Virus record (IMG/VR): IMGVR_UViG_3300038679_000357
Coordinates: 160,001-224,000 of that record
Source: a virus
Lineage: Duplodnaviria; Caudoviricetes
Length of the DNA stretch: 64,000 nt
Strand: one strand, 5' to 3'
In this document: positions 34,202 through 53,924 of the stretch, piece by piece
Numbering within the stretch: the first letter of the stretch is position 1
How the letters are laid out: every line of letters starts with the position of its first letter
Made by a program: the position numbers and the translations under genes
Notes under the pieces: model-generated
What the model was told of the DNA's origin: nothing
The model's input: the letters and a program-made list of their open reading frames with translations, nothing else
The model's database searches: none

Positions 34202-35092
34202 TCATGGTGGCGGCAATGTGTGAATTTCAATTGAGTGCGCCACACAACCTCCTGGAATAACAGACATACTGTAGGTCAGATCATCCGGTCCACAATCAAC
34301 TATAAACGGAGATGTAAACTCCACGCACGGAGAAACACCACAATAGACTCCGAATACCCACCTGCTTCCAACCAGTCGAAGAATCCCATTTCCTCCTAAA
34401 CTTCCATCGTCAAAATACATACATGGAGAAATTCGTTGCATGCGATGAGAACCAATTAAATCAATACAGTCAATACATCCACCGCAACCACCAACCCCAG
34501 TAACCCCATCGAAAACAACATAATATTCTTCACTAAGAGACGAATCGCAGTAACTACACTGCACCTCAGCCACGTGCGAGCTATGACTGTGAGATGAACT
34601 TTCTGGATTATATGACGAAGATGAGCTTGAATAACTGGCACTTGAGCTTGAGCCAACGATAGACGGATCTCCTCCGACATACTCAACGGACACCTCAAAT
34701 GTCGCCAAAGAGGAATCAACGTAAGAAGCCTTCGGAGATGCCGCCATATGAATATATTTCGTCAAACTCGTAGATCTCATTGGTATGGTCAATACCGATC
34801 CAATTCCACAAAAATACTGAGTAAAAGAAACTGCAGGATTAAGAGCATCTAAAATAGCTACGGCAAAAAGACCATCATCACACAATCCGATGGATGATGG
34901 TACAGAATTATCTTTATCAACCGATAAAAAACTTAATTTAACCGATGACACGGATCGAATTCCGGAAACAGCAATATCAAATGCAATGGCTTCTCCAATA
35001 CGTCCAGATTGACATACGCCAAAGTCCAGCGAAGAAACAGCTCCTTCGCATAAACCTGTAGATAAATCATACTTTCTTACAGTTACTTCCAT
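34202..35092 (-). CDS. Virion-type protein: domain paralogous to 36721..37158, poly-Ser linker, Cys-rich C-terminus
   Basis: N-terminus VRKYDLSTGLCEGAVSSLDFG aligns by eye to VREYNPTTGKFVGVVNELEFG; SSSSASYSSSSSS tract; multiple Cys distally. Confidence 0.6.
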   Translation of the reverse strand: MEVTVRKYDLSTGLCEGAVSSLDFGVCQSGRIGEAIAFDIAVSGIRSVSSVKLSFLSVDKDNSVPSSIGLCDDGLFAVAILDALNPAVSFTQYFCGIGSVLTIPMRSTSLTKYIHMAASPKASYVDSSLATFEVSVEYVGGDPSIVGSSSSASYSSSSSSYNPESSSHSHSSHVAEVQCSYCDSSLSEEYYVVFDGVTGVGGCGGCIDCIDLIGSHRMQRISPCMYFDDGSLGGNGILRLVGSRWVFGVYCGVSPCVEFTSPFIVDCGPDDLTYSMSVIPGGCVAHSIEIHTLPPP

Positions 35093-36714
35093 TAAACACC
35101 ACACGCACAGTTATAGTCAATAATAAACGCAGAGTTAGGCGCTCCAGATGCCGTAAATCTATATGTTGCGGAATAAATAAATGTATGGTCTACATAGCTA
35201 TAGCTCCCCCAACTACCATACGCAACCCACGAAGATCCATCCCAACGCTGAATATCCCACGAGTTATTTATGGCTGTCGATATAAAAACTCTATCTCCAT
35301 CGTTAAAATATACATCAACAGGCGGTGGAGTATTATTATTTGTGTCAATCCTAATAAGAATACATCCATTTGGGTCTGGATTGTTACAATATCCAGATGG
35401 ATACCAATAGTAATGACACATATTTCCGTATGCACATGCAGGAGCGCCATAAGTTGAACAACATGTATATCCAGGAATATATGGATCAGTTGAACTTGAA
35501 CTACTAGATGACGAACTTGAACTCGATGAAGAGCTATAGCTCGACGAACTAGAAAAAGATCCAGAAGAGCTTGATGACGGACTGTTTGATGAACTTGAAC
35601 TCGGGAAAGATTCATCGACTCCAATCAAATGAAGCCACCTGCATTTTCTCCACGGAATCCACTTTGATGAAATATAATCAAAATACGACACCGACAGTCC
35701 AGACTCGCCAAGAGAGTAGGCAACTGGACATTTCCAATGTCGATGAACTATAACGCCAGATCTATATTCGCATGTCACGCCAGGATCAAACGGGCGAATA
35801 TTCCCATTCATTGCAGACCATCTTCCGCCAGGCGTACAAACAGATACCGACTGGCGAAATATATTTTCCTCAATATCGTATGTCACAGACGAAACAGCGG
35901 CAGTGCCATCAGTTGAAATATCATACGAATTCCACCTAGACCACCTATCCGGATCAGACACATAACGAAACGGCGTTTCTCCATCAAAAGAATAAGAACG
36001 AAAGTAGTTGTACGACTCAGACTCTCTTAGAATAAAGAGAAAGGGGGCGTTACACCAGAATGAATACGTATCTCCTCCAAATTCAACAGACTTAAAACTC
36101 TGTTTTGGGTAAGAAACCATCATCTTTGAAGCAAGAATGGTAATGTCATTTCCAACCAATAACGCCCCATGAAGAATGTATCCTGACAGAGAAGTGACCA
36201 TTTGGACTCTCGAACTCATGTCATATACTCTGATCACATTACGAGAATCCTGAACAACGAGCATCACTCCACCATCCGGCATATAAACGGGAACAGACAC
36301 ACAGGCTTCTATATTTGGTAGAAGTGAATCATTCCCATAGACTGGCTTCCACTCCCTCGGATCGACAACATCTGGCTTGAATCTTTTTCTAACAAGAATA
36401 GGAGCATCAAATTCAGAAACGGACGGATGATAAACTCTTGGGTCAAAGGATGGAACTGAAATAATAGGTTGTGACGCCCTATCTTCTGCTAAAAACGGAG
36501 TAGCTCCAGCAATATTTATGTTTTGCCTGACGGTGGATACTAAATCAACAGACGTTAAGGCGGCAAAGTTCTGATTAGTATACCATACCGCACCAGAGCC
36601 ATCAATCATAGCGACATGAAGCTTTTTCCCAGAAAACATCCCCATTTCCACAATGCCAGAGCCGACAAAGTGAAACGACAAATCATAAGAACCACATTGT
36701 TCTATAACCGACAT
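35092..36714 (-). CDS. Virion-type protein with long poly-Ser linker and Cys-rich distal domain
   Basis: ~40-residue Ser tract (~35490-35612) followed by CCSTYGAPAC...MC...YC...GC. Confidence 0.6.
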   Translation of the reverse strand: MSVIEQCGSYDLSFHFVGSGIVEMGMFSGKKLHVAMIDGSGAVWYTNQNFAALTSVDLVSTVRQNINIAGATPFLAEDRASQPIISVPSFDPRVYHPSVSEFDAPILVRKRFKPDVVDPREWKPVYGNDSLLPNIEACVSVPVYMPDGGVMLVVQDSRNVIRVYDMSSRVQMVTSLSGYILHGALLVGNDITILASKMMVSYPKQSFKSVEFGGDTYSFWCNAPFLFILRESESYNYFRSYSFDGETPFRYVSDPDRWSRWNSYDISTDGTAAVSSVTYDIEENIFRQSVSVCTPGGRWSAMNGNIRPFDPGVTCEYRSGVIVHRHWKCPVAYSLGESGLSVSYFDYISSKWIPWRKCRWLHLIGVDESFPSSSSSNSPSSSSSGSFSSSSSYSSSSSSSSSSSSSSSTDPYIPGYTCCSTYGAPACAYGNMCHYYWYPSGYCNNPDPNGCILIRIDTNNNTPPPVDVYFNDGDRVFISTAINNSWDIQRWDGSSWVAYGSWGSYSYVDHTFIYSATYRFTASGAPNSAFIIDYNCACGV

Positions 36715-36720
36715 TCGACC

Positions 36721-37158
36721 TCAAGAAACGTCAAAAATCCATTGATATGATACAGTTCCTGTTCCAACCTTATTGGAATTCATTCTGACATTTAAATAAA
36801 CGTATTGAGACACTCGTGAAGATCTTCCACCAACGGTTACAGGGGTATTCACTCCTGCAAAAAACCTGGTCAACGTATTTCTAGGCACAAAATCGACATC
36901 GTGTTCGATACCAAAATTCCCATTGCCAGCCGATCCATCCGCCGTGATGTCAGTTGGAGAATCGTTAACTCCGATAAAATCAGAAGCTGTTATTTGAAGC
37001 CTCACATTGGAGATAGAATCAACTCCCTCAACTGTCAAATCAACAACTCTCACCGGACTATATTTTCCAACTGGAATGTGCCCAAATTCCAATTCATTCA
37101 CCACGCCGACAAATTTGCCGGTTGTTGGATTATACTCTCTAACAATGGTGGTGGGCAT
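36721..37158 (-). CDS. Small beta-sandwich virion-type protein
   Basis: 145 aa, beta-strand pattern; paralogous to the N-terminus of 34202..35092. Confidence 0.6.
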   Translation of the reverse strand: MPTTIVREYNPTTGKFVGVVNELEFGHIPVGKYSPVRVVDLTVEGVDSISNVRLQITASDFIGVNDSPTDITADGSAGNGNFGIEHDVDFVPRNTLTRFFAGVNTPVTVGGRSSRVSQYVYLNVRMNSNKVGTGTVSYQWIFDVS

Positions 37159-37225
37159 GAAATACCTCTTGAAAAAGCTTGTTGTTTAACATATTTTACC
37201 GATTATTTTCATAAAACACCTACCA

Positions 37226-38527
37226 TCAAGGAAGCATTGGTGGAGCCCATGGACCATCGGCAACAACCCTCCAGAAAGAGTACAACGGAGATATTCCGCT
37301 GTAAACTGTCGGCATAACGTGAGTGGCAACAACATTAAAAATACGCGGCATCCCTCCCTCAGACGGAGAAACCATAGAGGAGCCGTCAAAGTACATGAAT
37401 TCAGGTCTGGATAACTCATCATACGAAAAAGCATAATGAACCAGTGACGTAGAAAGAGGATCTGGAATAAGATCTCCTGGATCAGAAAAATAATCGACAA
37501 AATTAGGGCTGGTCCCGTAAATTACCTGTATGTGATAATCTGTACTCTGCCCAGAAGGAATTGACATTACAATAGACGGCGTATAAGACTGACCAACATC
37601 GTCAAAAGACGCCCTTGGAATAAATATCTTCGACGTCCATCCAGACGATCCTCCAATCCACTTAACCCGACTACACACGTAAAGAGGAGATGAAATCGGG
37701 ATTGAATTTGTAAAGAGAATCATCTTTTTTCCGGAATAAGAAGAGCTAACGCCAGAAAAAGGAAATGGCAAAATGGAATAACCATCAAAAAACCTAAACC
37801 CGGACGGATTAACACCACTATCGGCGTGAATGATGTAATCTCCACCAGAAAGATAGTAAGACGGCAGAGGAGACAAACCGACATAGACTTCAGCATGAAC
37901 ATTAAGAGACCACGTTATTCCTTCGCAAATATCAAATACTTGCGGAAAAACAGCCGATGGATCAAACGTATTCATCGATGGAGATGCATACGAAACATGC
38001 CTAATACCAGTAAACGAGCCATTTGCGACAAAAGAATCGGAAAGATAATATACTGGACGCCAATACACATATAACGGGGAGACGGGGCACGAAAGGTTAA
38101 GAATAATGAGTGATACGCTTTTTCCTATCTGACTAGATCCAAGACCGATATTCGCCCCAGAAGAAGGGAAGCAATATACCGAGTCAGATTCCAAGAAGAA
38201 GCCTCCTGCGTCATTGGAAAAACGCTCTGCAACCAACCCGTCTGTATCCCATCCAGTATACGAAAAATCAGGAGACGTCGAAACAACAACATGAAAATGT
38301 ACTCTATCATACAATGGATTGTATCCTGGAACGGTCATTCTGCAATGAATTCCGAATCCGGTAAAACTTGTCAGCGACAAATCAGCCGGTACGAGATCAT
38401 CAACCGAATCTCTCTTTGATGGAAGTGGACCAAAACCAACCGTTCCGGCGTTCAAAACAGCGGCGTTAACGCCTCCATCAAACCAAGCGAGCTTGGCATC
38501 AACTGGATACATCATGTCCCGCTGCAT
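37226..38527 (-). CDS. Virion-type protein with three internal repeated beta domains
   Basis: HFHVVVSTSPDF...SPLYVYWR, HAEVYVGLSP...SPLYVCSR and YHIQVIYGTSPNF...SPLYSFWR. The true start may be a few codons downstream. Confidence 0.6.
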   Translation of the reverse strand: MQRDMMYPVDAKLAWFDGGVNAAVLNAGTVGFGPLPSKRDSVDDLVPADLSLTSFTGFGIHCRMTVPGYNPLYDRVHFHVVVSTSPDFSYTGWDTDGLVAERFSNDAGGFFLESDSVYCFPSSGANIGLGSSQIGKSVSLIILNLSCPVSPLYVYWRPVYYLSDSFVANGSFTGIRHVSYASPSMNTFDPSAVFPQVFDICEGITWSLNVHAEVYVGLSPLPSYYLSGGDYIIHADSGVNPSGFRFFDGYSILPFPFSGVSSSYSGKKMILFTNSIPISSPLYVCSRVKWIGGSSGWTSKIFIPRASFDDVGQSYTPSIVMSIPSGQSTDYHIQVIYGTSPNFVDYFSDPGDLIPDPLSTSLVHYAFSYDELSRPEFMYFDGSSMVSPSEGGMPRIFNVVATHVMPTVYSGISPLYSFWRVVADGPWAPPMLP

Positions 38528-38528
38528 A

Positions 38529-38801
38529 TTACCACCTCCTCATCGCCCCGTCTAACGGACATCTTGCTGAGGCAAATTTTGTCTTGATAAGCATCACACA
38601 GCCACATACATCGCACATCCCGTTAGAAAATCTTGGACACAACTTACACATAGCTTGCCTTCTGGCAGACTCAGAATTACTAACAAACACCACTTTTTTC
38701 TTAAAATATGTCTTAAAAACCGATGGAATAAAACTCCATAGGCTTAAAACCCTCTTTGATATCTGTTTCCAAATACACTTCATGTGATAATTGTACATCA
38801 T
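38529..38801 (-). CDS. Small Cys-rich protein (DUF6171-like)
   Basis: RQAMCKLCPRF..GMCDVCGCVMLIKTKFASARCP pattern. Confidence 0.6.
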   Translation of the reverse strand: MMYNYHMKCIWKQISKRVLSLWSFIPSVFKTYFKKKVVFVSNSESARRQAMCKLCPRFSNGMCDVCGCVMLIKTKFASARCPLDGAMRRW

Positions 38802-39559
38802 TTTTCTACGTCAATGATTCCCTTCTCATAAACAGTAGAAAATCTTCCTATGAAATACTCTCCTGGAAATGAAAAATCTACAGATTGAGCGTAAACAATG
38901 TCGCCAACTCCATCTTCTGTTGCGGGAACTTCTTCCGTATCATCATGATAGGCAAGAACACTCCATTGCGCAGACAAATTATAGTCATACACGGTATTAA
39001 CCAACGGAATGTCAACATCAGACAACTCAGGAAGATAGAGGTCAGAGGTTCTTCCAGCGTCCGTCCATACGGTTCTTCCAATTATCTCAAAATTTCTGGA
39101 CGCAACGGGTATGGTATATCCAGGAGGAACAGCAGAAACCGTAGCAACTGTCGAAAAATCAAGAAACAGAACCCCCTTTCCAGAATTTACGTAAGACAAA
39201 ATATTTGCCTTTGACAACGGAGAAATATTATTGTTTCCAGCCCCTTCGACAATTAAACAATCATACTCATTCAATATGGATGACATCGACAACTTCCCGG
39301 CGTCAATCCTTTCTATAGAAACAAAATCAGCCTGAAAAATACCAGTATCAACTGAATCTACTCCATCGGCGATATCAACAACGGCGGCGGCAATTGATTC
39401 TCCATCTATCTTCCCTGACAACCATCCAAGAAGACGCCTACGAAACGTTGAGCTAACGGCTTCTCCATTAGTACATACTGCATTCAACCTTCCTGGAATA
39501 AAAGCAAATCTACCAGAACCATACGTTGCAACAGCAAGAGATATTGCTCTATAGCTCAC
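38798..39559 (-). CDS. Protein with class I glutamine amidotransferase-like (ThuA-type) fold segment
   Basis: LNEYDCLIVEG...LSKANILSYVNSGKGVLF resembles ThuA/GATase-like domains; GTG start overlapping the upstream stop. Confidence 0.45.
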   Translation of the reverse strand: MSYRAISLAVATYGSGRFAFIPGRLNAVCTNGEAVSSTFRRRLLGWLSGKIDGESIAAAVVDIADGVDSVDTGIFQADFVSIERIDAGKLSMSSILNEYDCLIVEGAGNNNISPLSKANILSYVNSGKGVLFLDFSTVATVSAVPPGYTIPVASRNFEIIGRTVWTDAGRTSDLYLPELSDVDIPLVNTVYDYNLSAQWSVLAYHDDTEEVPATEDGVGDIVYAQSVDFSFPGEYFIGRFSTVYEKGIIDVEK

Positions 39560-40506
39560 AAATTCACCTCATTGTTCGTCGGAGCTTCAAACGACAATGC
39601 AAACTCATGAATCACCGGAGATAATAGCGAATCATGCGAAGATAGTCTTGCTCCAACCTTAAACCTTTTACCAAAAGACGGGGGGATGGACACAATACGG
39701 TCAAGATCAATCGGAACGTAATCTTTCCAATCCCCAGACCCACCAGGACCGACTCCAAATACAATATCTGTTTTTCTTGGAATAGACATAGAAGCTGTGA
39801 GTAACGCATGACCAGGGGTTCCAGACTCTATTCTTATCGCATCGCTAAAGAAATACACCGAATGTGCCCCAACATAGGAAATTTCCATTTCAGCAACATA
39901 TGGTCGATCCACACGTGAGGAGGTTGACATTTCAACCATAAATTGCATGAATCTCCCCTTCAAATTAAATCGGTCAAGATCGATAATTAAGCGGTCTCCG
40001 TATAGATATGACTCTTCGCCACGATATCTATGCATCCAATCAGAAGATGCCAACGCCTCTTCGCTATCAGCAACCTTAACATAGATATCAACAAAGGAAT
40101 TTCCAGGAGTTGTCTGCTTCCAAGAAAAGGTTTTCCAGTAGCCAAGCCCATCGCCAGCGTTAAGTACATTAGATATGTACCTGCCATATACTACTTCCTT
40201 AATGTTTGCTCCATACACATCTCCGGCTGGGAAGGAAACATAACTTCCATCTTGATTAGCGGAAATAACTGCGTCAAAAAGGTCATACACCATCGAGAAA
40301 GAAGCAACGCCTGTTCGATCTCCATGACCATCATATACCGAAGAAAATATAGATGTTGGACCATATTTACCATACGATAAAGGAATGCTGGAAACAATAT
40401 ACGTATCGCCAGAGTCAGACAAGGCATAAACATTCCCTCTTCCAGAGTCATATACGACTGAGGAGAAACTTGAACCATCCTGCGTTGAAAGTATTTTTTT
40501 AAACAT
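39556..40506 (-). CDS. Virion structural protein (tail/baseplate region)
   Basis: WKTFSWKQTTPGNSFVDIYVKVAD...GRFMQFMVEMST...PYVAEMEISY, a pattern common in phage structural proteins. Confidence 0.55.
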   Translation of the reverse strand: MFKKILSTQDGSSFSSVVYDSGRGNVYALSDSGDTYIVSSIPLSYGKYGPTSIFSSVYDGHGDRTGVASFSMVYDLFDAVISANQDGSYVSFPAGDVYGANIKEVVYGRYISNVLNAGDGLGYWKTFSWKQTTPGNSFVDIYVKVADSEEALASSDWMHRYRGEESYLYGDRLIIDLDRFNLKGRFMQFMVEMSTSSRVDRPYVAEMEISYVGAHSVYFFSDAIRIESGTPGHALLTASMSIPRKTDIVFGVGPGGSGDWKDYVPIDLDRIVSIPPSFGKRFKVGARLSSHDSLLSPVIHEFALSFEAPTNNEVNL

Positions 40507-40509
40507 AAG

Positions 40510-41406
40510 TTACCCAGGAACCAAATAAATTGATGTATCGTTTCCAATCTGATCCGGCATTCCATTAGACTTGAACTTGACAGTTGAAAGTGCGACCGAT
40601 AGATCCGACGATCTTACATACGCCATTTCAATAGTAGGAGCGTTTCCGCCTCTAGGAACTGTTCCATAAGAAGCAACGCCAGAAGATAGAAGTGCCCCAT
40701 CATGTAAAAAGTTTAAGCCGCCAGTAAATATGTGCTTCCCAAGAATATATCCAGACAGATTTGGAAGACCAGAAGGCGGAGTTGCGACGGGCATGCTTCT
40801 ATTGACGTCATAAAACCAAGAAACAGACCAAGAAAAAGACGAATATGACAAACCCCTATCTCCACCATCAACTGCTATAAAAGAGGAAGAAGCCCCAGGA
40901 AGAACAGTTCCAGTTGACAATGGAGTGCTGTCATCCATAAACGGAGTCCAAACATACAATAAAGAAACAGACGGGTAGTAATCAACGCCGCCAACTACGA
41001 CCTGTGACATTGATAGGAATGAATCAGACACATACACCGAATGTGTCGTATCCATCGAACATATTTCCTGCCGCATGGCGATAAATTCACCAATCTTATA
41101 TGAATGCGACCTAACAGTAGACGTCCATACCTTTAATTGAATAGAGGCATTTTCCGTAACAGAAGAGGTAGGGACAAGTTCGTAAACAACTGACGCCCCC
41201 GATGAAGCTGGAATAGACTCTACGTGGAATGGATCAAAATCAAGAAGATATTTCCCATCATACCTCAAAGTAGAGAAAATTAACGAACCAGCATCAACTC
41301 CGATCAAGCAAGGTCCATACTCTTGCGATAAGCCAACACTTCTTTTTGGAGAGAGTTGAAAATATCTAATGCCGCTAACAGGATCAGGAATTTGTGTTAT
41401 CGACAC
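40510..41406 (-). CDS. Hypothetical virion-type protein
   Basis: Ser/Val-rich beta-type ORF within the structural block. Confidence 0.5.
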   Translation of the reverse strand: MSITQIPDPVSGIRYFQLSPKRSVGLSQEYGPCLIGVDAGSLIFSTLRYDGKYLLDFDPFHVESIPASSGASVVYELVPTSSVTENASIQLKVWTSTVRSHSYKIGEFIAMRQEICSMDTTHSVYVSDSFLSMSQVVVGGVDYYPSVSLLYVWTPFMDDSTPLSTGTVLPGASSSFIAVDGGDRGLSYSSFSWSVSWFYDVNRSMPVATPPSGLPNLSGYILGKHIFTGGLNFLHDGALLSSGVASYGTVPRGGNAPTIEMAYVRSSDLSVALSTVKFKSNGMPDQIGNDTSIYLVPG

Positions 41407-42205
41407 TTTTCACCTCCGCATCGTCGCCAACCTGATGAACATACAAATCAGGTCCGACTGCAATAAACAATTGATCAACAGAAGACGACATACTGCTTAT
41501 CGTCCCTCCAGAAAATCTATATTCCACGGAAACCTTACTTCCATTATAGGAATAAACAACTGGATTTTTTACCCCAGAAAAATACATTTTACCACCAACT
41601 GACGTCGAGGTTCCAACACCAATTTCGAAATGTGGATTTCCTGGAATTTCGCTCTTCGACGAAACAAAATTCTTTTTTCCAACGACAAATATCACACCAT
41701 CATCTTTCATAAACGACCAGGCATTTTCAGAGCGAACTCTCACCGTACCATCATCTCTTGAAAAAGCATAAATGCCGCCAGAATAATAGCAAAGAGAAGA
41801 GATATCTGTGAATGATTCGTAAATCTTCTTCCACTCATAACCATTGAATGATAAAATCATACCGGACGGAGATGTGGAAGCGTACATCGTATCACCATCG
41901 TCAACAATGGACGAAATGGAATAGTCGCCAGTTTGCACGTAAACGAATCTATTCCCAGTCGAAAAATTATGAATAAGTATAACTCCATTCGGAGAGGTGC
42001 CAATAAAGAGAGCGTTCCCAAAAACATGAAGAGACGAAACCATTGGGCTGTATGTACGTAAAAATTCATCATAGGATATGCCGTCGATAGTCCGATATAC
42101 AATCCCATTCTTAGACCCAACATAAGTCCAACCATCGTAAGAGCAAGAGCATGTTGCTCCACCAAACTGATCAATCGTAAATCTCGCCATCATAGATGTG
42201 TTCAT
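41384..42205 (-). CDS. Beta-propeller protein
   Basis: Repeated blades: WTYVGSKNGIVYR, ALFIGTSPNGVIL, TMYASTSPSGMILSF, KMYFSGVKNPVVYSY. Confidence 0.65.
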   Translation of the reverse strand: MNTSMMARFTIDQFGGATCSCSYDGWTYVGSKNGIVYRTIDGISYDEFLRTYSPMVSSLHVFGNALFIGTSPNGVILIHNFSTGNRFVYVQTGDYSISSIVDDGDTMYASTSPSGMILSFNGYEWKKIYESFTDISSLCYYSGGIYAFSRDDGTVRVRSENAWSFMKDDGVIFVVGKKNFVSSKSEIPGNPHFEIGVGTSTSVGGKMYFSGVKNPVVYSYNGSKVSVEYRFSGGTISSMSSSVDQLFIAVGPDLYVHQVGDDAEVKSVDNTNS

Positions 42206-44447: not shown

Positions 44448-44454
44448 GAAATCC

Positions 44455-45549: not shown

Positions 45550-45559
45550 TTTTCAGACC

Positions 45560-48500
45560 TCAATTGGAACTGCTACTGGAGCTGCTGCTCGAACTACTAC
45601 TTGAACTGCTGCTCGAAGAAACAGAATCGAAAATTAAATCTACTGGAACATACGTGTGTCGAGCGTCAACGTGCCAAAATGTTTCTTCAATAGGAAGACC
45701 CGTAATTCCTCCATCAAACACTTCAGGATATGGTCTTGTGCTAGAGGAAGAGGAGGAACTTGAAGACTCAGCCCGATTAAGAGCCAATACAATACTTCCA
45801 GCAGTATACGTAACCGAGAAAAAAGCCCCATCAACAGATCGAACAATACTTTCACCAACGTAAGAGAATGTGTGCTGCCTTTCAGCCCCACAATCCCACA
45901 CTGGATAGCCGCCACTCTCGCATATCACAAAATGATATCCGGAAATGACAACCTCTCCTGTCTCAGGGAACGAATAACGAACGGTAACGCAATAAGAATA
46001 ATCACCAGAATCGGACGGCAATGGAGGCTTTGGAAGCTCTACCTCACTACCAGAATACAAACTGCGACACATTCCAGACGAACTTGAAGAGGAAGTATCA
46101 TTATCATATCCAGGGAAATGACTCATCACAAATCTTTTCGTAGTGTATGACGTCCATTCGTCATCATTGCCAACACGAACAGAAACATAATATCTTTGAC
46201 CTGGCTGTAAATTATTGCCGCCACCATACAATATGGAAGATTTTGATGTATAGACAATCCCGCTATTCCACAACTCAGAGCCACCAGTAGTATGTCCAAC
46301 AAGTACCTGAACTCTATCATATTGCATTTCTACATCTAAATCTGGAGATGCATCATGGCTAAGTAATACTGAAAGAGGATGGGCGATTGACAGTCGGGCT
46401 CCAGCAGATAATACTTCCGGTTCAATATATGAATCAGGAATAGCAGATGTACTTTCTCCAGACGAAGAAGAAGAACTTCCGGCAGAAGACGAACTACTTG
46501 AGGAGCTTGATGATTGCTTTTTAGTATATGGTTGATCTATTGAAATATTTCCATGTACATCGGCATAAACAATCGTGCCATCCTTTAAAGAAATGCCTAT
46601 CGCCGAATCAGATGGCAGAACGCAGGCGGAGATAGGCTCAGAATAAGTTTTAATTGACGAAGTAGTAATTTCTCCGCTATCAATATTGATATATTCAACA
46701 ACGATCGTTTTGTCGATAACCCCAACTACAGTCCTAGATACAACGAACAACGACGACGGGGTTAAAAACCTACTGAACAGCAACTGTTCCGATGGTCCAT
46801 ATTCCCTTACTAAAATATTTCTACCAGTATGAATGTTAGTAACGTAAAGATTGTCCCTTCTCCTTGAGGCGCTAATCGAATCGAAAAGGACTCCGGACGA
46901 CTCTATCGTTGGGATCGCATCATAAGAGACCATACATGATGAAATAATATCATATACAGCGTCAGAGTCAGCAACTCTGTACCCCTCCATGTTAACGATA
47001 ACCTGAGTGGAATTATTTAAAACATCCAGCAAGGAAATGGAATTTTCGCAAACAACAATCTTTTTCCCATCCGGTCCTTCAATGATGGATGATGGAGCGT
47101 CCGTCAACTGTATTCTATCATACCTTCTAATGTCCGATACTGGCATTCTGTAGACGATGCCACGCGAAGGAGAGAATGACCAAAGATTCTGTTCATCGAA
47201 AGAAGAAACAGAAATATCGTCTGCAACACGACAAGAAGCGATCAGCGATCCATCAAAAATGTTGTGAAAATAAACATATCCCAGGCATGCGTATGATAAT
47301 CTATCGCCATATACAGCAACTGATCCAACTCGACCGTTTGCCTTAATGGGATCGTAAACAATATACCCCTTATCTCCGCGAGCCATTCGTACAACTTCAC
47401 CAAGTATACCTACGGCAAAAACGTCAGCAATGGAATCTCCAGAATAATTCCACATAAACACAGGTGATCGTCGTATTTCACCAATCCGAGGATCATCAGA
47501 AAGAGCACAGTCTACAGATAATCTCGTGCCCTCCATTCCCACGCGGTTAAAATGATACGAATCAACAGATAAAATTTTATCTGGAGTGCTATCACCATCG
47601 CCAAAATAATAAAAATCAGGATCTTCTGACGCAACACACTCTGACTCGTACGGGAGAATTGTACCTGGAGATCCATCCGTAGCGGTAAACGTCCCGGTAA
47701 AACCACCAATCACCCCATCAAATTGAGGCAAAGACTGCTTAAACATGCCGTCTTGTGCAGACCAATCGGCATCAACAACCATTACGTCGCCGCTAATGAT
47801 TGAGGATTTTCTCGATAAAACAGAAGCACCCAAGTCAAGCGCAACCACATACTTGTTTTGCGAGATATCTTCACACGATACATATATGTTCCCGGCATCC
47901 ATCTCAACACCAAGGGCGGAGAATCCAACCAATCTGGCTGTCCAACCAGAACTAGACAACGGAACATATGTCACTCCACCAGAAGCAGGAGAGGCATAAA
48001 TAAAAGCATCAGAAGATGGGGAGTATTTCAGTGTGTATGGACTATCAAACCCATCTCTACGAAAAATTGATGAAAGCGGGTTAACGGACGAAATACATGA
48101 TATTTTATCCCAAGAAGCATCGCGATTGACTATAGATAAAGAAAGATCAAGAAGAAGAACTTCATTATCTGTAGCAATAAAAAGTTGATCCTCTCTCTCT
48201 TGCACCGCCATAAACATGACGTCTTGATAACTCTCATCTGCAGCATACCCCACGTCAAACGACACTGTATGCACCCCCGTGCGAGAAGAGAATACAGTAT
48301 ACCTGGCTACCTTATCCCCATCGTACGTGTATATCCTGGAATTTTTTACTGAGTATGCAAACATGTACGCAGGATCAATTTCAATAGATGCGTAAATAAA
48401 GCCGTCAAGCTGATCAATGGCGTGAACATATCCATCGGTAAAGGCAAGAATCAACAATCTCTCTGGATCTTCAATAATATCTAAAACATCGTCCGTAAGA

Positions 48501-49972
48501 TCGACGGAGAATATCTCCATATTTTCAGCAGAATATTTACGAACAAACTGCCCTGATCTAACAATTAAATCGGATGAAAAAAGCAAGCAAATCGCACCTT
48601 CAATACTAACCGGAACGCTAGAAACCTTCATTGTTCGAATCATCGCAGTGCCAATATCGTTTCTCATCGCGTAAACGATACTTGAACTCGTTCCTGGGAC
48701 AATCACCCGAAAAGAAAAGCCAGAATGATCGGCGATAACAAATCCAGAAGATGAACCATTTACTCTAACCAAACCTCCAGGATTACCCTCTGGCGTAAAG
48801 CCAGCGACGATATCATTCTGTAAAACTGCAAGACAATCTCCGTGCATTCCACCAATTGCCAGTGACACCGGAGAAATATCTACAAACAATCTTTCCTGTT
48901 CCATCCATAGGGATCTACCAGTGAAACTGATCCCGTTTTTTGATGATCGACCAGAGTCTCCAATAGCCAGCCCCAACTTAGAATAGCCACCGCAAACATC
49001 ATCCCACCCCATCTGTGAATCACTATACCGATAACCCTCAAATTCACCGCTGGGAGAAAACAAAAAAACAGCCGGAGAAAGAGCATCAGAATGAAATGCC
49101 TTAACAGCCATTCTTCCATCACTAGAAGATGCGACAGCATATGGGAATCTCATAGCCTGATAAGAAACTACATTATGCCCAGAGTCCGTTAGATCGTTGC
49201 GAGGAACCGACACAATGCGGTGGTTCCCGCAATCACAGATAAACAGCCTATCTCTGGATAAACAAACGGCACGCGGATGAAGCAGTGATGTACCTCCGAC
49301 TGATTCAAGCCTACTTCCAGTACCGTCAGTCATTGAAATTCTAACCAGACTTCCACCATACGCCGCTTTATCGCCATATATTCTAACAGAATCAACAATG
49401 TATACGGTAGACGTAAGACGATCGGCAACGGCATGAATTGGACGAACTACCTTGACAGAAGAGACAAACGGAGTGAAATCTCCCGTGGCGACATCAAATA
49501 ACCTCAAAAAACATGGTTGCGCCCCACCTACTGAAAACATTCCAGCAAGAACTCCTTCACCGTCTCTTACCGGAAGGTAAAAAACAGTCCCATTAAGGTT
49601 TGGTACAGTAGAAGGTCCATATTGTACCTTTTTACCATCGGCGACGCAAAACCGATCGGCGACATCTTCATATCCGTGTGTATCTGTAATATCCAACGGA
49701 ATCTCAGAAAATGGTGAAAAATATCCCAATTTTTGAACAACATCGCCATAATCCGGGTAATCTCCACTCACCGACCATCCAACTAAATCAGCATCAACTG
49801 ACTGATAATCAAACGCTACAGAAGTAGAAGGGATAGCTCCACGTGTATCCACGTACACAACATAATCAATCGTTCCGGAAGAAAGAGAACAACCCGGAAT
49901 CGGTCCAACTGGTCTCCTCCTTGCCGGAGGATAGTGCGTACCAGAAGATGGCTCATAAACGCCCATATTCAC
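45560..49972 (-). CDS. Large (1470 aa) multi-beta-propeller (NHL-like) virion protein with four poly-Ser tracts
   Basis: LLHPRAVCLSRDRLFICDCGNHRIVSV (NHL repeat); many blade motifs; FN3-like segment (LQPGQRYYVSVRV); Ser tracts at ~46455-46515, ~46076-46097, ~45740-45770 and ~45563-45620. Confidence 0.7.
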   Translation of the reverse strand: MNMGVYEPSSGTHYPPARRRPVGPIPGCSLSSGTIDYVVYVDTRGAIPSTSVAFDYQSVDADLVGWSVSGDYPDYGDVVQKLGYFSPFSEIPLDITDTHGYEDVADRFCVADGKKVQYGPSTVPNLNGTVFYLPVRDGEGVLAGMFSVGGAQPCFLRLFDVATGDFTPFVSSVKVVRPIHAVADRLTSTVYIVDSVRIYGDKAAYGGSLVRISMTDGTGSRLESVGGTSLLHPRAVCLSRDRLFICDCGNHRIVSVPRNDLTDSGHNVVSYQAMRFPYAVASSSDGRMAVKAFHSDALSPAVFLFSPSGEFEGYRYSDSQMGWDDVCGGYSKLGLAIGDSGRSSKNGISFTGRSLWMEQERLFVDISPVSLAIGGMHGDCLAVLQNDIVAGFTPEGNPGGLVRVNGSSSGFVIADHSGFSFRVIVPGTSSSIVYAMRNDIGTAMIRTMKVSSVPVSIEGAICLLFSSDLIVRSGQFVRKYSAENMEIFSVDLTDDVLDIIEDPERLLILAFTDGYVHAIDQLDGFIYASIEIDPAYMFAYSVKNSRIYTYDGDKVARYTVFSSRTGVHTVSFDVGYAADESYQDVMFMAVQEREDQLFIATDNEVLLLDLSLSIVNRDASWDKISCISSVNPLSSIFRRDGFDSPYTLKYSPSSDAFIYASPASGGVTYVPLSSSGWTARLVGFSALGVEMDAGNIYVSCEDISQNKYVVALDLGASVLSRKSSIISGDVMVVDADWSAQDGMFKQSLPQFDGVIGGFTGTFTATDGSPGTILPYESECVASEDPDFYYFGDGDSTPDKILSVDSYHFNRVGMEGTRLSVDCALSDDPRIGEIRRSPVFMWNYSGDSIADVFAVGILGEVVRMARGDKGYIVYDPIKANGRVGSVAVYGDRLSYACLGYVYFHNIFDGSLIASCRVADDISVSSFDEQNLWSFSPSRGIVYRMPVSDIRRYDRIQLTDAPSSIIEGPDGKKIVVCENSISLLDVLNNSTQVIVNMEGYRVADSDAVYDIISSCMVSYDAIPTIESSGVLFDSISASRRRDNLYVTNIHTGRNILVREYGPSEQLLFSRFLTPSSLFVVSRTVVGVIDKTIVVEYINIDSGEITTSSIKTYSEPISACVLPSDSAIGISLKDGTIVYADVHGNISIDQPYTKKQSSSSSSSSSSAGSSSSSSGESTSAIPDSYIEPEVLSAGARLSIAHPLSVLLSHDASPDLDVEMQYDRVQVLVGHTTGGSELWNSGIVYTSKSSILYGGGNNLQPGQRYYVSVRVGNDDEWTSYTTKRFVMSHFPGYDNDTSSSSSSGMCRSLYSGSEVELPKPPLPSDSGDYSYCVTVRYSFPETGEVVISGYHFVICESGGYPVWDCGAERQHTFSYVGESIVRSVDGAFFSVTYTAGSIVLALNRAESSSSSSSSSTRPYPEVFDGGITGLPIEETFWHVDARHTYVPVDLIFDSVSSSSSSSSSSSSSSSSSSN

Positions 49973-49976
49973 CTGT

Positions 49977-50615
49977 TTAACAAATAGTTCTGCGGATCAA
50001 CAACGTGGTTATGTTGGGTAATGCTTCATTCCATCGTTTGCGGATCAAATCTTCTACGTTCGACCAAGCAACAACAACTGCATCTGGTTTTGTCCTATTT
50101 ATCCAATCCACAACCCCATCCCTGTATAAGTGGTACAAATGCTCGCCAGGTTTAAAATGACGCCACCCCATCAACTCGAAGAAACTAGCCACATCTGGTG
50201 TCTCCGGAAATGACAACAGACAATATTCCCACTTCATTAAAAATAAGTCGTTGATATTTTCAAAGTGTTCAAGAACATCACTCAAAACAACCAGACCCCA
50301 CGTCCTTGAATAGAGATCGTCCCTACTAATTACATTTTCTCCAACAACATCATATTCGCAGACCTCCTTGAATTTCCCGCGACAACAGTTGGCAAATATC
50401 CCATTCCCGCTTCCTACATCAACCATCGACATTTCTTTAATTTTCTCGTAAGGAATGTAAGCACACATAAACCCCATCCTAAGATAGGACATCTCTACAT
50501 TAGTGCTCTGTTTTGCTTTATAAGAATCATCATAGACGATTCTATGTTGATCAACCTGCTTGATAAAACCATTTTCGTAGGCATACCCAGTAGGAAGATC
50601 TAACTCCGCTCTCAT
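49977..50615 (-). CDS. Class I SAM-dependent methyltransferase (small-molecule/sugar type)
   Basis: MVDVGSGNG (motif I) and LVVLSDVLEHF; last gene of the GT cluster. Confidence 0.75.
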   Translation of the reverse strand: MRAELDLPTGYAYENGFIKQVDQHRIVYDDSYKAKQSTNVEMSYLRMGFMCAYIPYEKIKEMSMVDVGSGNGIFANCCRGKFKEVCEYDVVGENVISRDDLYSRTWGLVVLSDVLEHFENINDLFLMKWEYCLLSFPETPDVASFFELMGWRHFKPGEHLYHLYRDGVVDWINRTKPDAVVVAWSNVEDLIRKRWNEALPNITTLLIRRTIC

Positions 50616-50617
50616 TT

Positions 50618-51730
50618 TTACCTAAACTTTTTTATCTCATTTTCCAGTGCCTTACGCCGCTTCTGCATGTATTCAATCTCCTTCACTGGAATGATATTAT
50701 TTAACTCACTCAAAGATATACAGCAATCAAATTGCAGATATAAGAAGAAGGACTGAACAAGATCAAAAACCGACTCCCTTCTCTTCCTACTATTCTGGTC
50801 ATATTTCCCATCCATTTGAGTAAGAAGTTTCGGTATATTGTCGTCTTTTAAATGTCGTTCTCCCTTTTCACTAGCCCAATCCCTTCCATGAAACGCCCTA
50901 ACATGCTCATGGGTTTCAGAGAAAAACATGCACTTCGGTCTGTATCCACTATCTGTAATAATAGTTCCTTCGGGAAGAGACATTAACCTGGGAAGAAGTG
51001 ATGTTCTATAAATAGAATAATGAACGTTCGTCCAAAGATGAGACGCAAGAACCAACATATTTTCCTTGACGCCATTCTTCAACAAAACAAGGTTCATTGT
51101 TTCGAGATCGCCGGTAAACGGCCAGGTGTTATCCATTCCAATTTTCAGACGATGATCAAACACATCAAGAAAAACATCACCATACTTCCTCGCATCAATA
51201 AACATCGGAGTGTTACAGACAAACTTACCGTCAACTGTATCGTTTTTGAAAAATGGAGTTCTTTTGTCTCCATCAACATAACATGGGCATGAACCCTTTG
51301 TTTGGTCGGTTTTGTAATACCGAACAACATTATCATTCACCGCGACAACAACCGAAGTATTAGCTGCGATCTCAAACAGTTCTCGAACACCGGAAACGAG
51401 AAAAATATCAGTGTCAATAAAGCAAATTGACTTGTATTGTGTTCCTACTTCAGCCATGATTTTGTAACGGTAATACTTTACCGTCATAACCTTACCGAGC
51501 TTGGAATCCTTTGGTAGCGTTACTATCGGTATGAAGCGCACCTTAGTTTCCATTCCGCAACATTTGTTTTCTATAAACGACCTATATTTCTCCGTAACAC
51601 TTTCATCATGTATAACAACAACGTCAGCATATTTACCGCACCCAAACAGTTCAATACTATTTAATAGCGCGTTAAATAAATAGGTGTAATTATCGGTAAG
51701 ACTTAGAAAAAACGCATGGTCTTTCACCAA
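50618..51730 (-). CDS. GT-A fold glycosyltransferase (GT8-like)
   Basis: LLNSIELF...VVVIHD...YYRYKIM...SICFIDTDIF (DxD motif)...GDLETMNLVL. Confidence 0.7.
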   Translation of the reverse strand: MVKDHAFFLSLTDNYTYLFNALLNSIELFGCGKYADVVVIHDESVTEKYRSFIENKCCGMETKVRFIPIVTLPKDSKLGKVMTVKYYRYKIMAEVGTQYKSICFIDTDIFLVSGVRELFEIAANTSVVVAVNDNVVRYYKTDQTKGSCPCYVDGDKRTPFFKNDTVDGKFVCNTPMFIDARKYGDVFLDVFDHRLKIGMDNTWPFTGDLETMNLVLLKNGVKENMLVLASHLWTNVHYSIYRTSLLPRLMSLPEGTIITDSGYRPKCMFFSETHEHVRAFHGRDWASEKGERHLKDDNIPKLLTQMDGKYDQNSRKRRESVFDLVQSFFLYLQFDCCISLSELNNIIPVKEIEYMQKRRKALENEIKKFR

Positions 51731-51733: not shown

Positions 51734-53422
51734 CTACTCCTTGTTATGTGTATGAGTCTTCGGACGACCAGGCTCATAGAACCGGTAATACATTTCGATC
51801 CTCCTAATAACCTCATCGGCAGTGATCATATCCATGCAAAACGGTAACTCCACACCTTCTACTGAGTTGACAACGTATTCGCACATATTCTTACGATCCT
51901 TCTCATCATTATCACCAATAGGCTTAATTCTGCTCTTCCAACATCCTCCATTGTCACAGCAAGGAAGAGATCCGCACGTATGGATAAATTGATGTGAGGT
52001 ATAAGCCTGCCAATGAGAAGGCTCTCGCCCGCCAGCGATAACAACACATGGTCTATCTCGCCTACCATTACATGTACCCTGCTTAACTGGAACAGCGGCA
52101 GCTAATGTCATAGGATAACTACATGGGGTCAAAACACCAGAAGACGCCCACACCAATCGGATCAATTGACGGTCATCAGTTTTACCGACAAGATTTATTG
52201 TACCATTCAACTCTGGATGATTATGGGATTTATGTCCCATTTGAACGAACACAACTCTTCCAGCAAAATGATCAATAACTTTCTGATACCGTTCAACTGG
52301 CCACATTTTTGCAGTAAAATCATTTTTAAAACCAGCATTAAGAATCCAATAATGTACATCAGCGGCATAGCCAAACTGAGAAAACCAAGTATTTCTCTCT
52401 GTCCATCCCCATCCATCTTCGTTCGAGCCGATAACAATATGACCTCGACATAACCTATTTCTTATCCTGACGCCAAGAAGGGTTTCAAAATGATCTGTGA
52501 ACCCCTCAGAAAAGTGATATGGTCCCTGATTACTTTGATTAATCAATGGATATTCAGCACTATACACCTCAACACCAGGTTCTTTTTCATCTAGCTTCGT
52601 GATATATGGATTCGATTCCCATATACCCATAGAATTGGTGCGAACGTCTGTAATAAACTTTCCGGGATGATTCAAATGAAGATCGCGAATTGCCGCAGTC
52701 ATCATAACGATATCACCAGGCGCTTGAAAATTCTTAAAAATAACCTTCCTTTTATCGGAGCCAGACGAAGATACGATAGAGGTAGATTCCACCACTTTTT
52801 TAGGAGTATCTACAGATGGGACGGCTTTCTCCCTCTGTTTTCTAAACTTTTCAAGAGCTGCCTTTCTTCTTTCCTCAATAGACGGCGGATGAGGAACTAA
52901 ATCTGACGAACGTGTCTCAATAACTTTTTTTTCTTCAGGCTCTACTACCTTATTTTCAATCAAAGCCGGTTCAGTTGACTTATCTACAGTTGGAAGTTTA
53001 TCCTTTTTAGGCGGAATATCAGGTATGTCAATTTCACGCTGTTCATAAACCTGCTGTTCTACGACGTTGGTAAACAAATTTATCCACGACTTTAGCGCCC
53101 CATGAGAAATCCACTCTCTTCCACCTATATACTTAGACACAACTGACTTACGATCATCTGGAAGAGACTTAAACTCAGATACAAACAAGCTTAAAATAGA
53201 GGGGTATTTTGAATTAATATAACACGACGGACACCCTCCTGATGGAACATTTTTTTCAGCCGTCGAGCACAACTCTTTTGTCTCAGTAAAATTTTCAGAC
53301 ACTATTTGGTCTGTGTCAATCTTTTTTATTATATCCAACGCTACAGACGCTGGAGTAAGAATAGATTGAGGTTGCTTGCGGTTAACTAGCGTACTGATCT
53401 TTTTAAGCATATGAATCACCAT
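51734..53422 (-). CDS. GT9 (heptosyltransferase-like, GT-B) glycosyltransferase with N-terminal extension
   Basis: APGDIVMMTAAIRDLH..HP, AKMWPVERYQKV, INLVGKTDDRQLIRLV..S.GVL...SYPMTLAAAV. Confidence 0.8.
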   Translation of the reverse strand: MVIHMLKKISTLVNRKQPQSILTPASVALDIIKKIDTDQIVSENFTETKELCSTAEKNVPSGGCPSCYINSKYPSILSLFVSEFKSLPDDRKSVVSKYIGGREWISHGALKSWINLFTNVVEQQVYEQREIDIPDIPPKKDKLPTVDKSTEPALIENKVVEPEEKKVIETRSSDLVPHPPSIEERRKAALEKFRKQREKAVPSVDTPKKVVESTSIVSSSGSDKRKVIFKNFQAPGDIVMMTAAIRDLHLNHPGKFITDVRTNSMGIWESNPYITKLDEKEPGVEVYSAEYPLINQSNQGPYHFSEGFTDHFETLLGVRIRNRLCRGHIVIGSNEDGWGWTERNTWFSQFGYAADVHYWILNAGFKNDFTAKMWPVERYQKVIDHFAGRVVFVQMGHKSHNHPELNGTINLVGKTDDRQLIRLVWASSGVLTPCSYPMTLAAAVPVKQGTCNGRRDRPCVVIAGGREPSHWQAYTSHQFIHTCGSLPCCDNGGCWKSRIKPIGDNDEKDRKNMCEYVVNSVEGVELPFCMDMITADEVIRRIEMYYRFYEPGRPKTHTHNKE

Positions 53423-53439
53423 TTTTTAGCAATGACAAC

Positions 53440-53469
53440 ATTATACAACACCACAACAAAATTAATCAA
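53440..53469 (-). promoter_or_regulatory. Candidate sigma70-type promoter for the GT9/GT8/MTase cluster
   Basis: Minus strand TTGATT-N18-TATAAT, 17 nt upstream of ATG 53422. Confidence 0.5.
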
Positions 53470-53924
53470 GGAGATGTAGAGGAGCTAGAGCTACTTGAAG
53501 AGCTAGAGCTACTTGAAGAGCTACTGAATGTCAACCAACACCTAATGTACTCTACGTTCAAATATTTTGACGAAGAGCTACTTTGGCTAGAAGATGATAT
53601 GCTCGAACTGCTTTCACTGGAAGACGACATACTTGAGCTTGATTTTGAAGACGAACTGGATCTTCCGTCAATTACAGCGCCAACTTGAACTTCTGAAATA
53701 CGATTTTCAACATATTTACGGGCTCCAGAAAAATGAAGTTCATCTTTAGCTCCATCAAGATCATTCCATGGTCCGTCTCCATTAAATCTAATATGATGAG
53801 TAATAAGCGAAGTGGGGTCGATTCCGATAGGATATCGGTCAGTCGGCAATGAAGATACCACCCCAGTTGCCGACACATCGATCAGCGGGGTAAAAACAAA
53901 AACATTCCATGGACCGACTATCAT
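53466..53924 (-). CDS. Small protein with two poly-Ser tracts
   Basis: About one third Ser, ending FSSSSSSSSSSSSSSSSTSP; directly upstream of the GT cluster. Confidence 0.6.
   Translation of the reverse strand: MIVGPWNVFVFTPLIDVSATGVVSSLPTDRYPIGIDPTSLITHHIRFNGDGPWNDLDGAKDELHFSGARKYVENRISEVQVGAVIDGRSSSSSKSSSSMSSSSESSSSISSSSQSSSSSKYLNVEYIRCWLTFSSSSSSSSSSSSSSSSTSP
53482..53524. repeat. 18-bp tandem repeat encoding poly-Ser
   Basis: gagctagagctacttgaa twice plus a partial third copy. Confidence 0.85.

Follow-up and report, generated by a model that had tools for sequence, protein, structure and literature searches.

Poly-serine junctions in fibre-like proteins of a huge phage and their link to a divergent subfamily of GT9 glycosyltransferases

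Long poly-serine (poly-Ser) tracts are encoded in four genes of an uncultured huge phage, and an operon of GT9, GT8 and methyltransferase genes lies among them. The stretch of DNA analyzed, hereafter the window, is 64,000 nucleotides long and corresponds to bases 160001-224000 of a single viral contig of 255,142 bp (IMG/VR record IMGVR_UViG_3300038679_000357, Caudoviricetes; 42.5% GC; CheckV completeness 97%). In relatives of this phage the tracts occupy the joints between modules of fibre-like proteins, and in both phages and bacteria poly-Ser genes are strongly enriched beside the glycosyltransferase (GT) subfamily to which the GT9 protein belongs. It is considered slightly better than an even bet that the tracts are joints of fibre-like proteins which the GT9-GT8-methyltransferase operon would glycosylate into mucin-like stalks. 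Glycosylation of poly-Ser as such is probable, as judged from the comparison of loci described below.

Four minus-strand open reading frames (ORFs) with Ser tracts had been listed in an initial annotation of this DNA, and all of them were found again at the same positions (Table 1). Beyond the window, the same genome has at least four more poly-Ser genes. Serine makes up 9.6% of the proteome, and genome-wide 25 runs of at least 6 Ser were seen where 0.06 would be expected, and 9 runs of at least 9 Ser where 5e-5 would be expected. Chance origin of the runs is thus excluded. All six Ser codons are used across the 18 tracts of the genome (290 Ser codons), so that the mixture of AGY and TCN codons noticed at first holds for the whole genome, and the share of AGY codons is 44% inside the tracts vs. 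22% outside (chi-square P = 4e-18). When codons were shuffled within tracts, identical neighbouring codons turned out to be mildly depleted in the real tracts (43 vs. 54.6, P = 0.025), and changes from one codon box to the other mildly enriched (148 vs. 133, P = 0.03). The phage carries four tRNA-Ser genes, by which both Ser codon boxes are covered. An exact 18-bp tandem duplication in the terminal tract of the 152-aa gene, already pointed out as a single case, is real; however, Tandem Repeats Finder (TRF) detects another one, a degenerate 12/24-bp repeat, in the sequence for the S18 tail of the 1470-aa protein. Since the codons are mixed and the repeated units themselves consist of mixed codons, single-codon slippage is not the source of the tracts, and two of the tails have grown by duplication of mixed-codon units.

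These duplications could be taken to mean that the tracts are neutral low-complexity expansions, generated by replication slippage or unequal recombination and having no function of their own. They are recent (18 bp and 12/24 bp, in two tails), and tract length varies among relatives from 6 to more than 80 residues, both of which such a process would produce. This explanation is nevertheless very improbable. The tract positions are kept across orthologues of 30-55% identity, all six codons are in use with identical neighbours depleted, runs of at least 6 Ser exceed the chance expectation about 400-fold, and Ser alone among ten residues tested makes such tracts near GT9 genes. The conserved positions and mixed codons agree with the earlier proposal that selection for Ser acts at the protein level.

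The anatomy of the tracts is best seen in relatives. A profile made from the clade of the GT9 gene retrieved about 15 syntenic relatives from metagenomes and one IMG/VR contig. In orthologues of the 1470-aa protein (30-55% identity), three Ser tracts stand at the same positions, with the modules between them in the same order. The tract positions are 1154/1294/1403 in the window, 1149/1290/1392 in L082, 1164/1294/1398 in L096 and 1161/1286/1388 in L086-87. The orthologues in L086/L087 run on past the S18 end of the window protein and have many more modules separated by poly-Ser, including two ConA-like lectin domains; Laminin_G_3 lectin domains (E 1e-40) and a Gly_rich_2 domain are also carried on poly-Ser linkers in relatives. 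The C-terminal module of the 540-aa protein (aa 409-540) shares 81% identity with the C-terminus of an L081 protein that begins with a different N-terminal domain, the W domain described below, and there too it follows poly-Ser, while the N-terminal part of the 540-aa protein is kept in L083. The 145-aa protein encoded next to it is a free copy of a "head" domain that opens the 300-aa protein, the product of a poly-Ser gene at genome position 40105-41370 and, by blastp, large poly-Ser proteins in L001, L091, L095, L098 and L115. This head domain is a virus-only family in the Atlas, and its AlphaFold2 (AF2) model, with a predicted local distance difference test score (pLDDT) of 75, gave no significant fold match (best Foldseek E 0.016, to pilins; best VIA Z 6.4, within noise).

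Conserved modules flank three of the four tracts in the 1470-aa protein as well as those of the 540-aa and 300-aa proteins. From this arrangement in orthologues, the Ser tracts appear to be flexible junctions which join an N-terminal anchor domain to exchangeable distal modules, and the flexible connectors suggested at the outset are well borne out by anatomy. Anchors of three kinds would be in use (the W domain of 88 aa, the head domain of 145 aa and a large body resembling a propeller), and the distal modules would be small, either Cys-rich, Ig-like or, in relatives, lectin-like, being gained, lost and swapped at the tracts. Loss or swapping of modules at these sites would leave some tracts as terminal tails. 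Since the tails match internal linkers in L081 and L086/87, they are best and most simply read as linkers whose distal module has been lost or moved.

The 152-aa protein is a small example of the same architecture. Homologues of its W domain occupy the same slot in L081, L082 and L096 according to blastp, and in L084, L091, L092, L094/95, L097, L133, L083 and L086/87 according to hhalign (probability 94-99%). The slot after the DUF192 gene is filled by a W domain in 13 relatives, always followed by poly-Ser, and the C-terminal payload varies from none (proteins of 113-152 aa) up to that of proteins of 540-654 aa. The 152-aa protein has no relatives in Pfam, PHROG or the Atlas, and a scan of viral contigs with this single protein gave no match. 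In the phage represented by L001/L133, the W-domain gene stays in the DUF192 slot, and the GT operon is located about 75 kb away beside other poly-Ser genes. The 152-aa gene is therefore, from gene order, a conserved poly-Ser gene of the block, and its adjacency to GT9 in the window is not its defining trait. This Ser-tipped gene directly upstream of the GT genes had been singled out as the best candidate acceptor. As a conserved poly-Ser protein it remains a candidate, but it is tied to the DUF192 slot and is one of about nine.

The GT operon accompanies the poly-Ser genes throughout the clade. All 15 clade loci have the GT9, GT8 and methyltransferase genes in synteny (43-76% identity) and poly-Ser genes adjoining them, and a gene for a W domain with poly-Ser is present in 13 of the 15. 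The two GT labels given at first differ in their footing. The GT8 gene scores 29.1 bits against PF01501 (cut-off 24.3), its D106 and D108 are invariant in 12 orthologues, its profile matches the GT8 domain of WbbM (E 1e-4), and it is syntenic in all clade loci, so that it qualifies as GT8 by Pfam. The GT9 gene reaches 15.9 bits (E 0.008) against PF01075, below the Pfam gathering cut-off of 22, and was assigned by fold. An AF2 model of its last 343 residues (pLDDT 83.7; predicted template modelling score 0.85) was compared by Foldseek and VIA, and matched Veillonella GT9 (3tov, Z 22.7), WaaF (20.8), WaaC (19.1) and TibC (18.9), while the next fold class, the UDP-GlcNAc 2-epimerases, reached at most 11.3. 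The predicted structure is clearly that of a GT9 enzyme. Many homologues of the subfamily carry a precomputed PF01075 match (26.7 bits for the Chthoniobacter homologue), and the subfamily appears as a divergent group at the edge of this model. Searches of PDB sequences with the GT9 protein, alone or as profiles, returned noise or one weak match to WaaF. In that weak hidden Markov model alignment (E 0.74), a G236-D237 loop that is invariant in 25-30 sequences aligns to G12-D13 of WaaF, and a C-lobe motif aligns to WaaF 244-280. The subfamily has a C-lobe insert with invariant C459, C488, C489, C494, C514, C529, H477 and H481; the 220-aa N-terminal extension, with a CxxC motif followed by a variable Pro/Lys-rich linker, is specific to the phage clade.

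The same association extends far beyond the clade. More than 2000 proteins share about 50-55% identity with the GT9 catalytic domain, and of these 80 viral loci (49 lineages, dereplicated at 80% identity) and 80 bacterial loci (Acidobacteriota, Gemmatimonadota, Verrucomicrobiota, Planctomycetota and Proteobacteria) were sampled. An ORF with a tract of at least 8 Ser was regarded as a poly-Ser ORF and counted within 10 kb of GT9. Such ORFs were present at 53 of 80 bacterial loci, with tracts of up to 250 Ser, and in 18 of 49 viral lineages. Their density per 10 kb at distances of 0-1, 1-3, 3-5 and 5-10 kb is 1.94, 0.85, 0.47 and 0.04 in bacteria, and 1.26, 0.27, 0.17 and 0.15 in viruses, which corresponds to an enrichment of about 50-fold and 8-fold, respectively, within 1 kb of GT9. 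The nearest poly-Ser ORF lies within 500 bp at 24 of the 53 bacterial loci (P = 3e-15) and in 7 of the 18 viral lineages (P = 3e-5), and 60 of 68 bacterial poly-Ser ORFs are on the strand of GT9. Nothing comparable was found for nine other homopolymers near GT9. As a control, 23 loci of canonical GT9 paralogues were drawn from five of the same bacterial genomes; none has a poly-Ser ORF within 1.5 kb, as against 30 of the 80 subfamily loci (Fisher P = 1.5e-4). The canonical paralogues of these genomes score 80-218 bits against PF01075, vs. 27-50 bits for the subfamily. The link of the tracts to neighbouring GT genes, first suspected from this one genome, is thus well supported by comparative genomics.

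The poly-Ser partners are of diverse origin. They fall into bacterial proteins with a twin-arginine (Tat) signal and lipobox (16), phage proteins with W/P2 domains, and clusters V1-V3, and these groups are mutually unrelated (hhalign probability below 2% between groups). The serine run is the sole feature that the partner proteins have in common. Partners in other phage lineages had no PHROG matches. On a tree of 134 GT9 domains, poly-Ser adjacency changes state at least 24 times, so that the pairing cannot be explained as one inherited operon; in the same tree, the GT9 clade of the window is monophyletic and has viral sisters. Usual companions of the subfamily are a second GT (Mannosyl_trans3-type, GT2/GT64 or GT4) and a methyltransferase, which are often fused, and this pattern matches the GT9-GT8-methyltransferase logic of the window. 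The exact trio was also considered as a universal unit and was rejected, since the GT8 and methyltransferase homologues of the window do not accompany GT9 outside the clade. Few genomes carry the subfamily, which occurred in 1 of the 101 that were sampled from one phylum. It had no match in 50,697 GenBank phage records, the 433-aa and 1470-aa phage proteins had none among GenBank phages, and scanning viral contigs with the single GT9 protein gave none either. Other features of the sampled loci were also recorded. A 963-aa ORF of a Gemmataceae genome (L226/L230; G004:C1:19720-24435) has two tandem GT9-subfamily domains, each 48% identical to the phage domain. Volactin-like genes are neighbours in 11 viral lineages of the set, and in one GT9-bearing viral contig (L021:6592-8643) a volactin-type actin gene is split by an intein with a LAGLIDADG endonuclease.

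In bacteria, many of the partners (L143, L164, L169, L173, L176, L180, L181 and others) begin with an RRxFLxLL twin-arginine signal, which is followed by a lipobox Cys and then by 40-100 Ser. They look like lipoproteins exported by Tat and made up almost wholly of poly-Ser, and with this export route glycosylation could take place earlier, in the cytoplasm. From these observations a more general proposal can be made, namely that the divergent GT9 subfamily is a dedicated poly-Ser O-glycosyltransferase which starts a so far unrecognized, mucin-like system of protein glycosylation. It would act on Tat lipoproteins before export in environmental bacteria and on fibre stalks in huge phages, with extension GTs and methyltransferases specific to each lineage. 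The chances for and against this broader proposal are regarded as evenly balanced.

Two other uses of the tracts have to be weighed against glycosylation. First, they may be plain, unmodified flexible linkers, with the GT9-GT8-methyltransferase operon acting on the host envelope (on lipopolysaccharide, LPS, or a different surface glycan, for instance so as to prevent superinfection) or on another component of the phage. In favour of this, the tracts clearly have the anatomy of linkers, LPS heptosyltransferases are the most familiar GT9 enzymes, and the modelled fold resembles WaaF and WaaC as closely as it does TibC, an enzyme that glycosylates a protein. In addition, some phages have the subfamily but no long poly-Ser, and poly-Ser also occurs without the subfamily. 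What this explanation leaves unaccounted for is the 8- to 50-fold enrichment of poly-Ser beside the subfamily in both phages and bacteria, the mutually unrelated nature of the partner proteins and the lack of poly-Ser at all 23 canonical paralogue loci, and it is regarded as rather unlikely. Second, the tracts may receive another or an additional modification such as phosphorylation, in which case glycosylation would be secondary, if it occurs. A Ser/Thr protein-kinase-like gene directly follows GT9 at 15 of 80 bacterial loci (e.g., L188:11096-12172 and L173:10705-11847), mostly in Gemmatimonadota but also in Chthoniobacter flavus, where the gene has an FHA domain, and in two Planctomycetota; such a kinase might phosphorylate the Ser tract or the glycan. 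However, this neighbour is confined to those few bacterial lineages and is absent from the 49 viral lineages, the clade loci and the present genome, and the general companions of GT9 are GTs and methyltransferases. Phosphorylation as the principal modification is thought to be quite improbable.

If the tracts are glycosylated by the operon, the process may be pictured as follows. Late in infection, the GT9 protein would act in the host cytoplasm as a soluble enzyme that recognizes Ser runs on newly made fibre proteins, and it would transfer the first sugar to Ser hydroxyls. The GT8 enzyme would then add a second sugar to extend the glycan, and the methyltransferase would cap or decorate it. 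Runs glycosylated in this manner would become stiffened, extended and protease-resistant mucin-like stalks, by which small binding modules are kept off the particle. The tracts with their conservation, the modular architecture, the conserved operon, the GT9 fold and the statistical association of the subfamily with poly-Ser proteins are shown by the data, whereas Ser as the acceptor residue, the order of the enzymes, the nature of the sugar and the location on the virion are parts of this scheme that we infer.

Several observations weigh against this scheme. The case for glycosylation is built throughout on gene neighbourhood and is an argument from association. No poly-Ser ORF lies within 10 kb of GT9 in 31 of the 49 viral lineages. 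In five large, near-complete GT9-bearing phage genomes of this kind, Ser-type runs were sought over the whole genome; as the DNA patterns (WSN)x12 and (WSN)x20 are too loose and also match other repeats and frames, only matches verified by translation were used. Three of the five have no such run of at least 12 codons anywhere, and the other two have very long tracts elsewhere in the genome (61 and 148 residues). Conversely, at least one bacterial genome has a tract of at least 45 Ser and lacks the GT9 subfamily. No relative without the GT operon was found with which the clade could be compared: a profile of the zincin-nucleotidyltransferase retrieved none from IMG/VR, and a narrowed head-domain profile retrieved the second half of the L001 contig only. 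The phage genome has no genes of the ADP-heptose pathway (GmhA, HldE-kinase and adenylyltransferase families), so that a heptose donor, if one is used, would need to be supplied by the host. By fold, the phage GT9 resembles WaaF, WaaC and Veillonella GT9 at least as much as TibC. Finally, none of the four poly-Ser proteins matches a known virion protein in Pfam, PHROG or GenBank phages. Considering all of these, the link between the GT9 subfamily and poly-Ser is strong, but not absolute.

The last of these points bears on where the proteins would be found. The four genes had been called "virion-type", a term for which the genomic context speaks and the sequence matches do not. If they are not virion parts, the products might be released or host-directed late proteins, whether glycosylated or not; besides the lack of any match to known virion proteins, it can be noted that the bacterial counterparts are exported lipoproteins and are not structural. 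On the other hand, the genes occupy the late strand, with the large terminase gene on one side and the portal gene on the other, in a block that is syntenic in relatives. Neighbouring genes encode a protein whose N-terminal domain is of tail-fibre type (E 2e-8) and one that resembles tail fibre assembly proteins, and the layout of anchor, linker and lectin is typical of fibres. A non-virion role is accordingly judged improbable.

Known glycosylation systems offer partial parallels. The enzymes TibC and AAH perform cytoplasmic O-glycosylation of Ser-rich acceptors by an adjacent GT, and many Ser are modified (PMC4358343). As in these bacterial autotransporter heptosyltransferases (BAHTs; pairs TibC-TibA and AAH-AIDA-I; PDB 4RAP/4RB4), the phage enzyme is predicted to be a soluble GT-B enzyme of the GT9 fold, and its gene adjoins that of its (here presumed) protein substrate. 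Conserved Cys residues grouped within an insert of the C-lobe, and an additional domain at the N-terminus, are present in the phage family too and may be counterparts of the TibC features. The phage model aligns with TibC over 268 residues (Z 18.9, rmsd, the root-mean-square deviation, 3.6). However, no sequence similarity to the phage GT9 is detectable, even by profiles. The model of the catalytic domain aligns only from TibC residue 90 onward, and this modelled domain shows no equivalent of the TibC beta-barrel (residues 1-97). TibC has a four-Cys iron finger (C339/342/358/370) inserted in the C-lobe, to which the invariant Cys/His residues of the phage insert may or may not correspond. Moreover, BAHT acceptors are beta-helical autotransporters, whereas the neighbours of the phage family are unrelated poly-Ser proteins, none of them an autotransporter; the presumed phage acceptor is a disordered homopolymer, and the phage lacks ADP-heptose genes. 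Judging from the model, none of the defining features of TibC is positively present in the phage enzyme, and the fold does not separate protein-type from LPS-type heptosyltransferases. WaaC and WaaF (PDB 2H1H, 1PSW) share the GT9 fold (Z 19.1-20.8) and, going by the weak alignment mentioned above, may also share the N-terminal G-D loop and C-lobe motif, but the subfamily differs from them in having the extra Cys/His-rich insert and in adjoining genes for proteins rather than LPS-core genes.

The serine-rich repeat proteins (SRRPs) of Gram-positive bacteria receive their O-glycans intracellularly: a dedicated GT whose gene is close by starts the process, and further GTs extend the product (PMC6973325, PMC7948813). 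The SRRPs Fap1, GspB and PsrP resemble the phage proteins in their very long, Ser-rich, low-complexity stalks bearing binding domains and in the dedicated GT nearby. They differ in that glycosylation is initiated by the GT4 pair GtfA/GtfB, while the phage block has GT9, GT8 and methyltransferase genes and no GT4, and in that they are bacterial adhesins with SxSx dipeptide repeats exported by the accessory Sec system (SecA2/SecY2), while the phage runs are pure Ser and such export has no bearing on a phage. The resemblance to SRRPs would be functional only. In phages, the GTs of the mycobacteriophages Che8 and Rita are reported to attach glycans covalently to virion proteins as a glycan shield, according to the account of Freeman et al. 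2023 given in PMC11256854; the acceptors in that account are major capsid proteins, not poly-Ser fibres. The phage system described here is not a member of the BAHT, SRRP or Che8/Rita systems, and represents a divergent GT9 subfamily whose acceptor would be of another kind, if poly-Ser is indeed its substrate. A literature search combining poly-serine with heptosyltransferase, phage or glycosyltransferase found no paper on this pairing. Poly-Ser linkers with mixed codons also join modules, including carbohydrate-binding ones, of secreted polysaccharide hydrolases in some marine and soil bacteria. To our knowledge, these have no dedicated adjacent GT, and we know of no evidence that they are glycosylated.

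If the proposed activity is correct, it would define a new class of protein O-glycosyltransferases for which a bare serine run is the recognition element, and uncultured huge phages would make sugar-coated, mucin-like fibre stalks. This bears on the protease resistance of such particles, on their sticking to surfaces and on their evasion of recognition, as well as on the evolution of modular receptor-binding proteins through module swaps at low-complexity joints. In Acidobacteriota, Gemmatimonadota, Verrucomicrobiota and Planctomycetota, the Tat-signal lipoproteins made almost of pure poly-Ser would be a new kind of bacterial surface glycoprotein. The cultured strain Chthoniobacter flavus Ellin428 has a homologous pair of neighbouring genes (GT9 at L188:9920-11029, poly-Ser protein at L188:9312-9854), which makes the idea directly testable.

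The genomic setting of the block is that of late genes. The minus strand carries 214 of the 253 ORFs of the phage genome, and the order of genes along this strand is large terminase, trypsin-like protease, zincin-nucleotidyltransferase, a small gene, the DUF192 gene, the poly-Ser block (34202-53924) and portal, followed by a head-protease polyprotein and an AAA giant protein (Table 1).

Table 1. Genes, Ser tracts and repeats in the window (positions count from its first base; tract residues are followed by their window positions in parentheses)
Feature	Position	Strand	Details
Portal	29108-31465	minus	late strand
300-aa protein	34202-35104	minus	paralogue of the 145-aa head domain, Ser-rich linker, Cys-rich C-terminal module; tract aa 150-177 (34574-34657), longest pure run S6
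540-aa protein	35092-36714	minus	N-terminal part, Ser tract, Cys-rich C-terminal module aa 409-540; tract aa 372-408 (35491-35601), includes S15
145-aa all-beta "head" domain protein	36721-37158	minus	blastp matches to N-termini of poly-Ser proteins in relatives
148-aa protein	44001-44447	minus	weak match to tail fibre assembly proteins (phrog_105, E 0.004)
364-aa protein	44455-45549	minus	tail-fibre/tailspike-type N-terminal domain; PHROG tail fibre and tail spike families, E 2e-8 to 1e-4
1470-aa fibre-like protein	45560-49972	minus	large N-terminal part (weak NHL match), three small modules split by Ser tracts, S18 tail; tracts aa 1154-1171 (46460-46513), 1294-1299 (46076-46093), 1403-1411 (45740-45766), 1452-1469 (S18 tail, 45566-45619)
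Degenerate 12/24-bp tandem repeat in S18 tail of 1470-aa gene	45565-45617		TRF, 76-88% match
SAM (S-adenosylmethionine)-dependent methyltransferase (Methyltransf_23)	49977-50615	minus	third operon gene; Pfam E 2e-7, PHROG methyltransferase
GT8 (GT-A) glycosyltransferase	50618-51730	minus	invariant DxD (D106, D108); Pfam PF01501 E 9.5e-7, above cut-off
GT9-fold glycosyltransferase	51734-53422	minus	220-aa N-terminal extension and 343-aa GT-B catalytic domain (by model)
152-aa protein	53466-53924	minus	N-terminal W domain of about 88 aa, poly-Ser, short KYLN..CW motif, terminal S16; tracts aa 89-119 (53568-53660) and 134-149 (S16, 53478-53525)
Exact 18-bp tandem duplication in terminal Ser tract of 152-aa gene	53482-53523		TRF, period 18, 2.3 copies, 100% match
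DUF192 protein	53965-54960	minus	late strand
Large terminase	60195-61976	minus	late strand

Some minor features of the block and its surroundings were also observed. Inside the 364-aa fibre-like gene, TRF detects a 90-bp tandem repeat at 45100-45288 (2.1 copies, 81% match), which encodes a repeated 30-residue motif (…DEKAAL.GTNGSPSALNKYVTD.DPR…). A small Cys-rich protein with CxxC pairs is encoded at 38529-38801 in the fibre block; its homologue is a 152-aa Cys-rich ORF (L001:8744-9202) that adjoins GT9 directly upstream in the L001/L099 phage. The AT skew of the plus strand is 0.14-0.19 over window positions 34000-50000, i.e., the fibre block, vs. about 0 to 0.05 elsewhere in the window, and this zone of high skew coincides with Ser/Val/Tyr-rich genes. 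Two adjacent paralogous glycosyltransferase genes (7681-9381 and 9378-10859, minus strand; phrog_2170, E 2e-23 and 3e-29) are located downstream of the head genes. At 2320-4368, a 682-aa ORF has a LAGLIDADG homing-endonuclease domain in its first half (E 1.5e-14), possibly as an intein or as a mobile element fused into a late gene.

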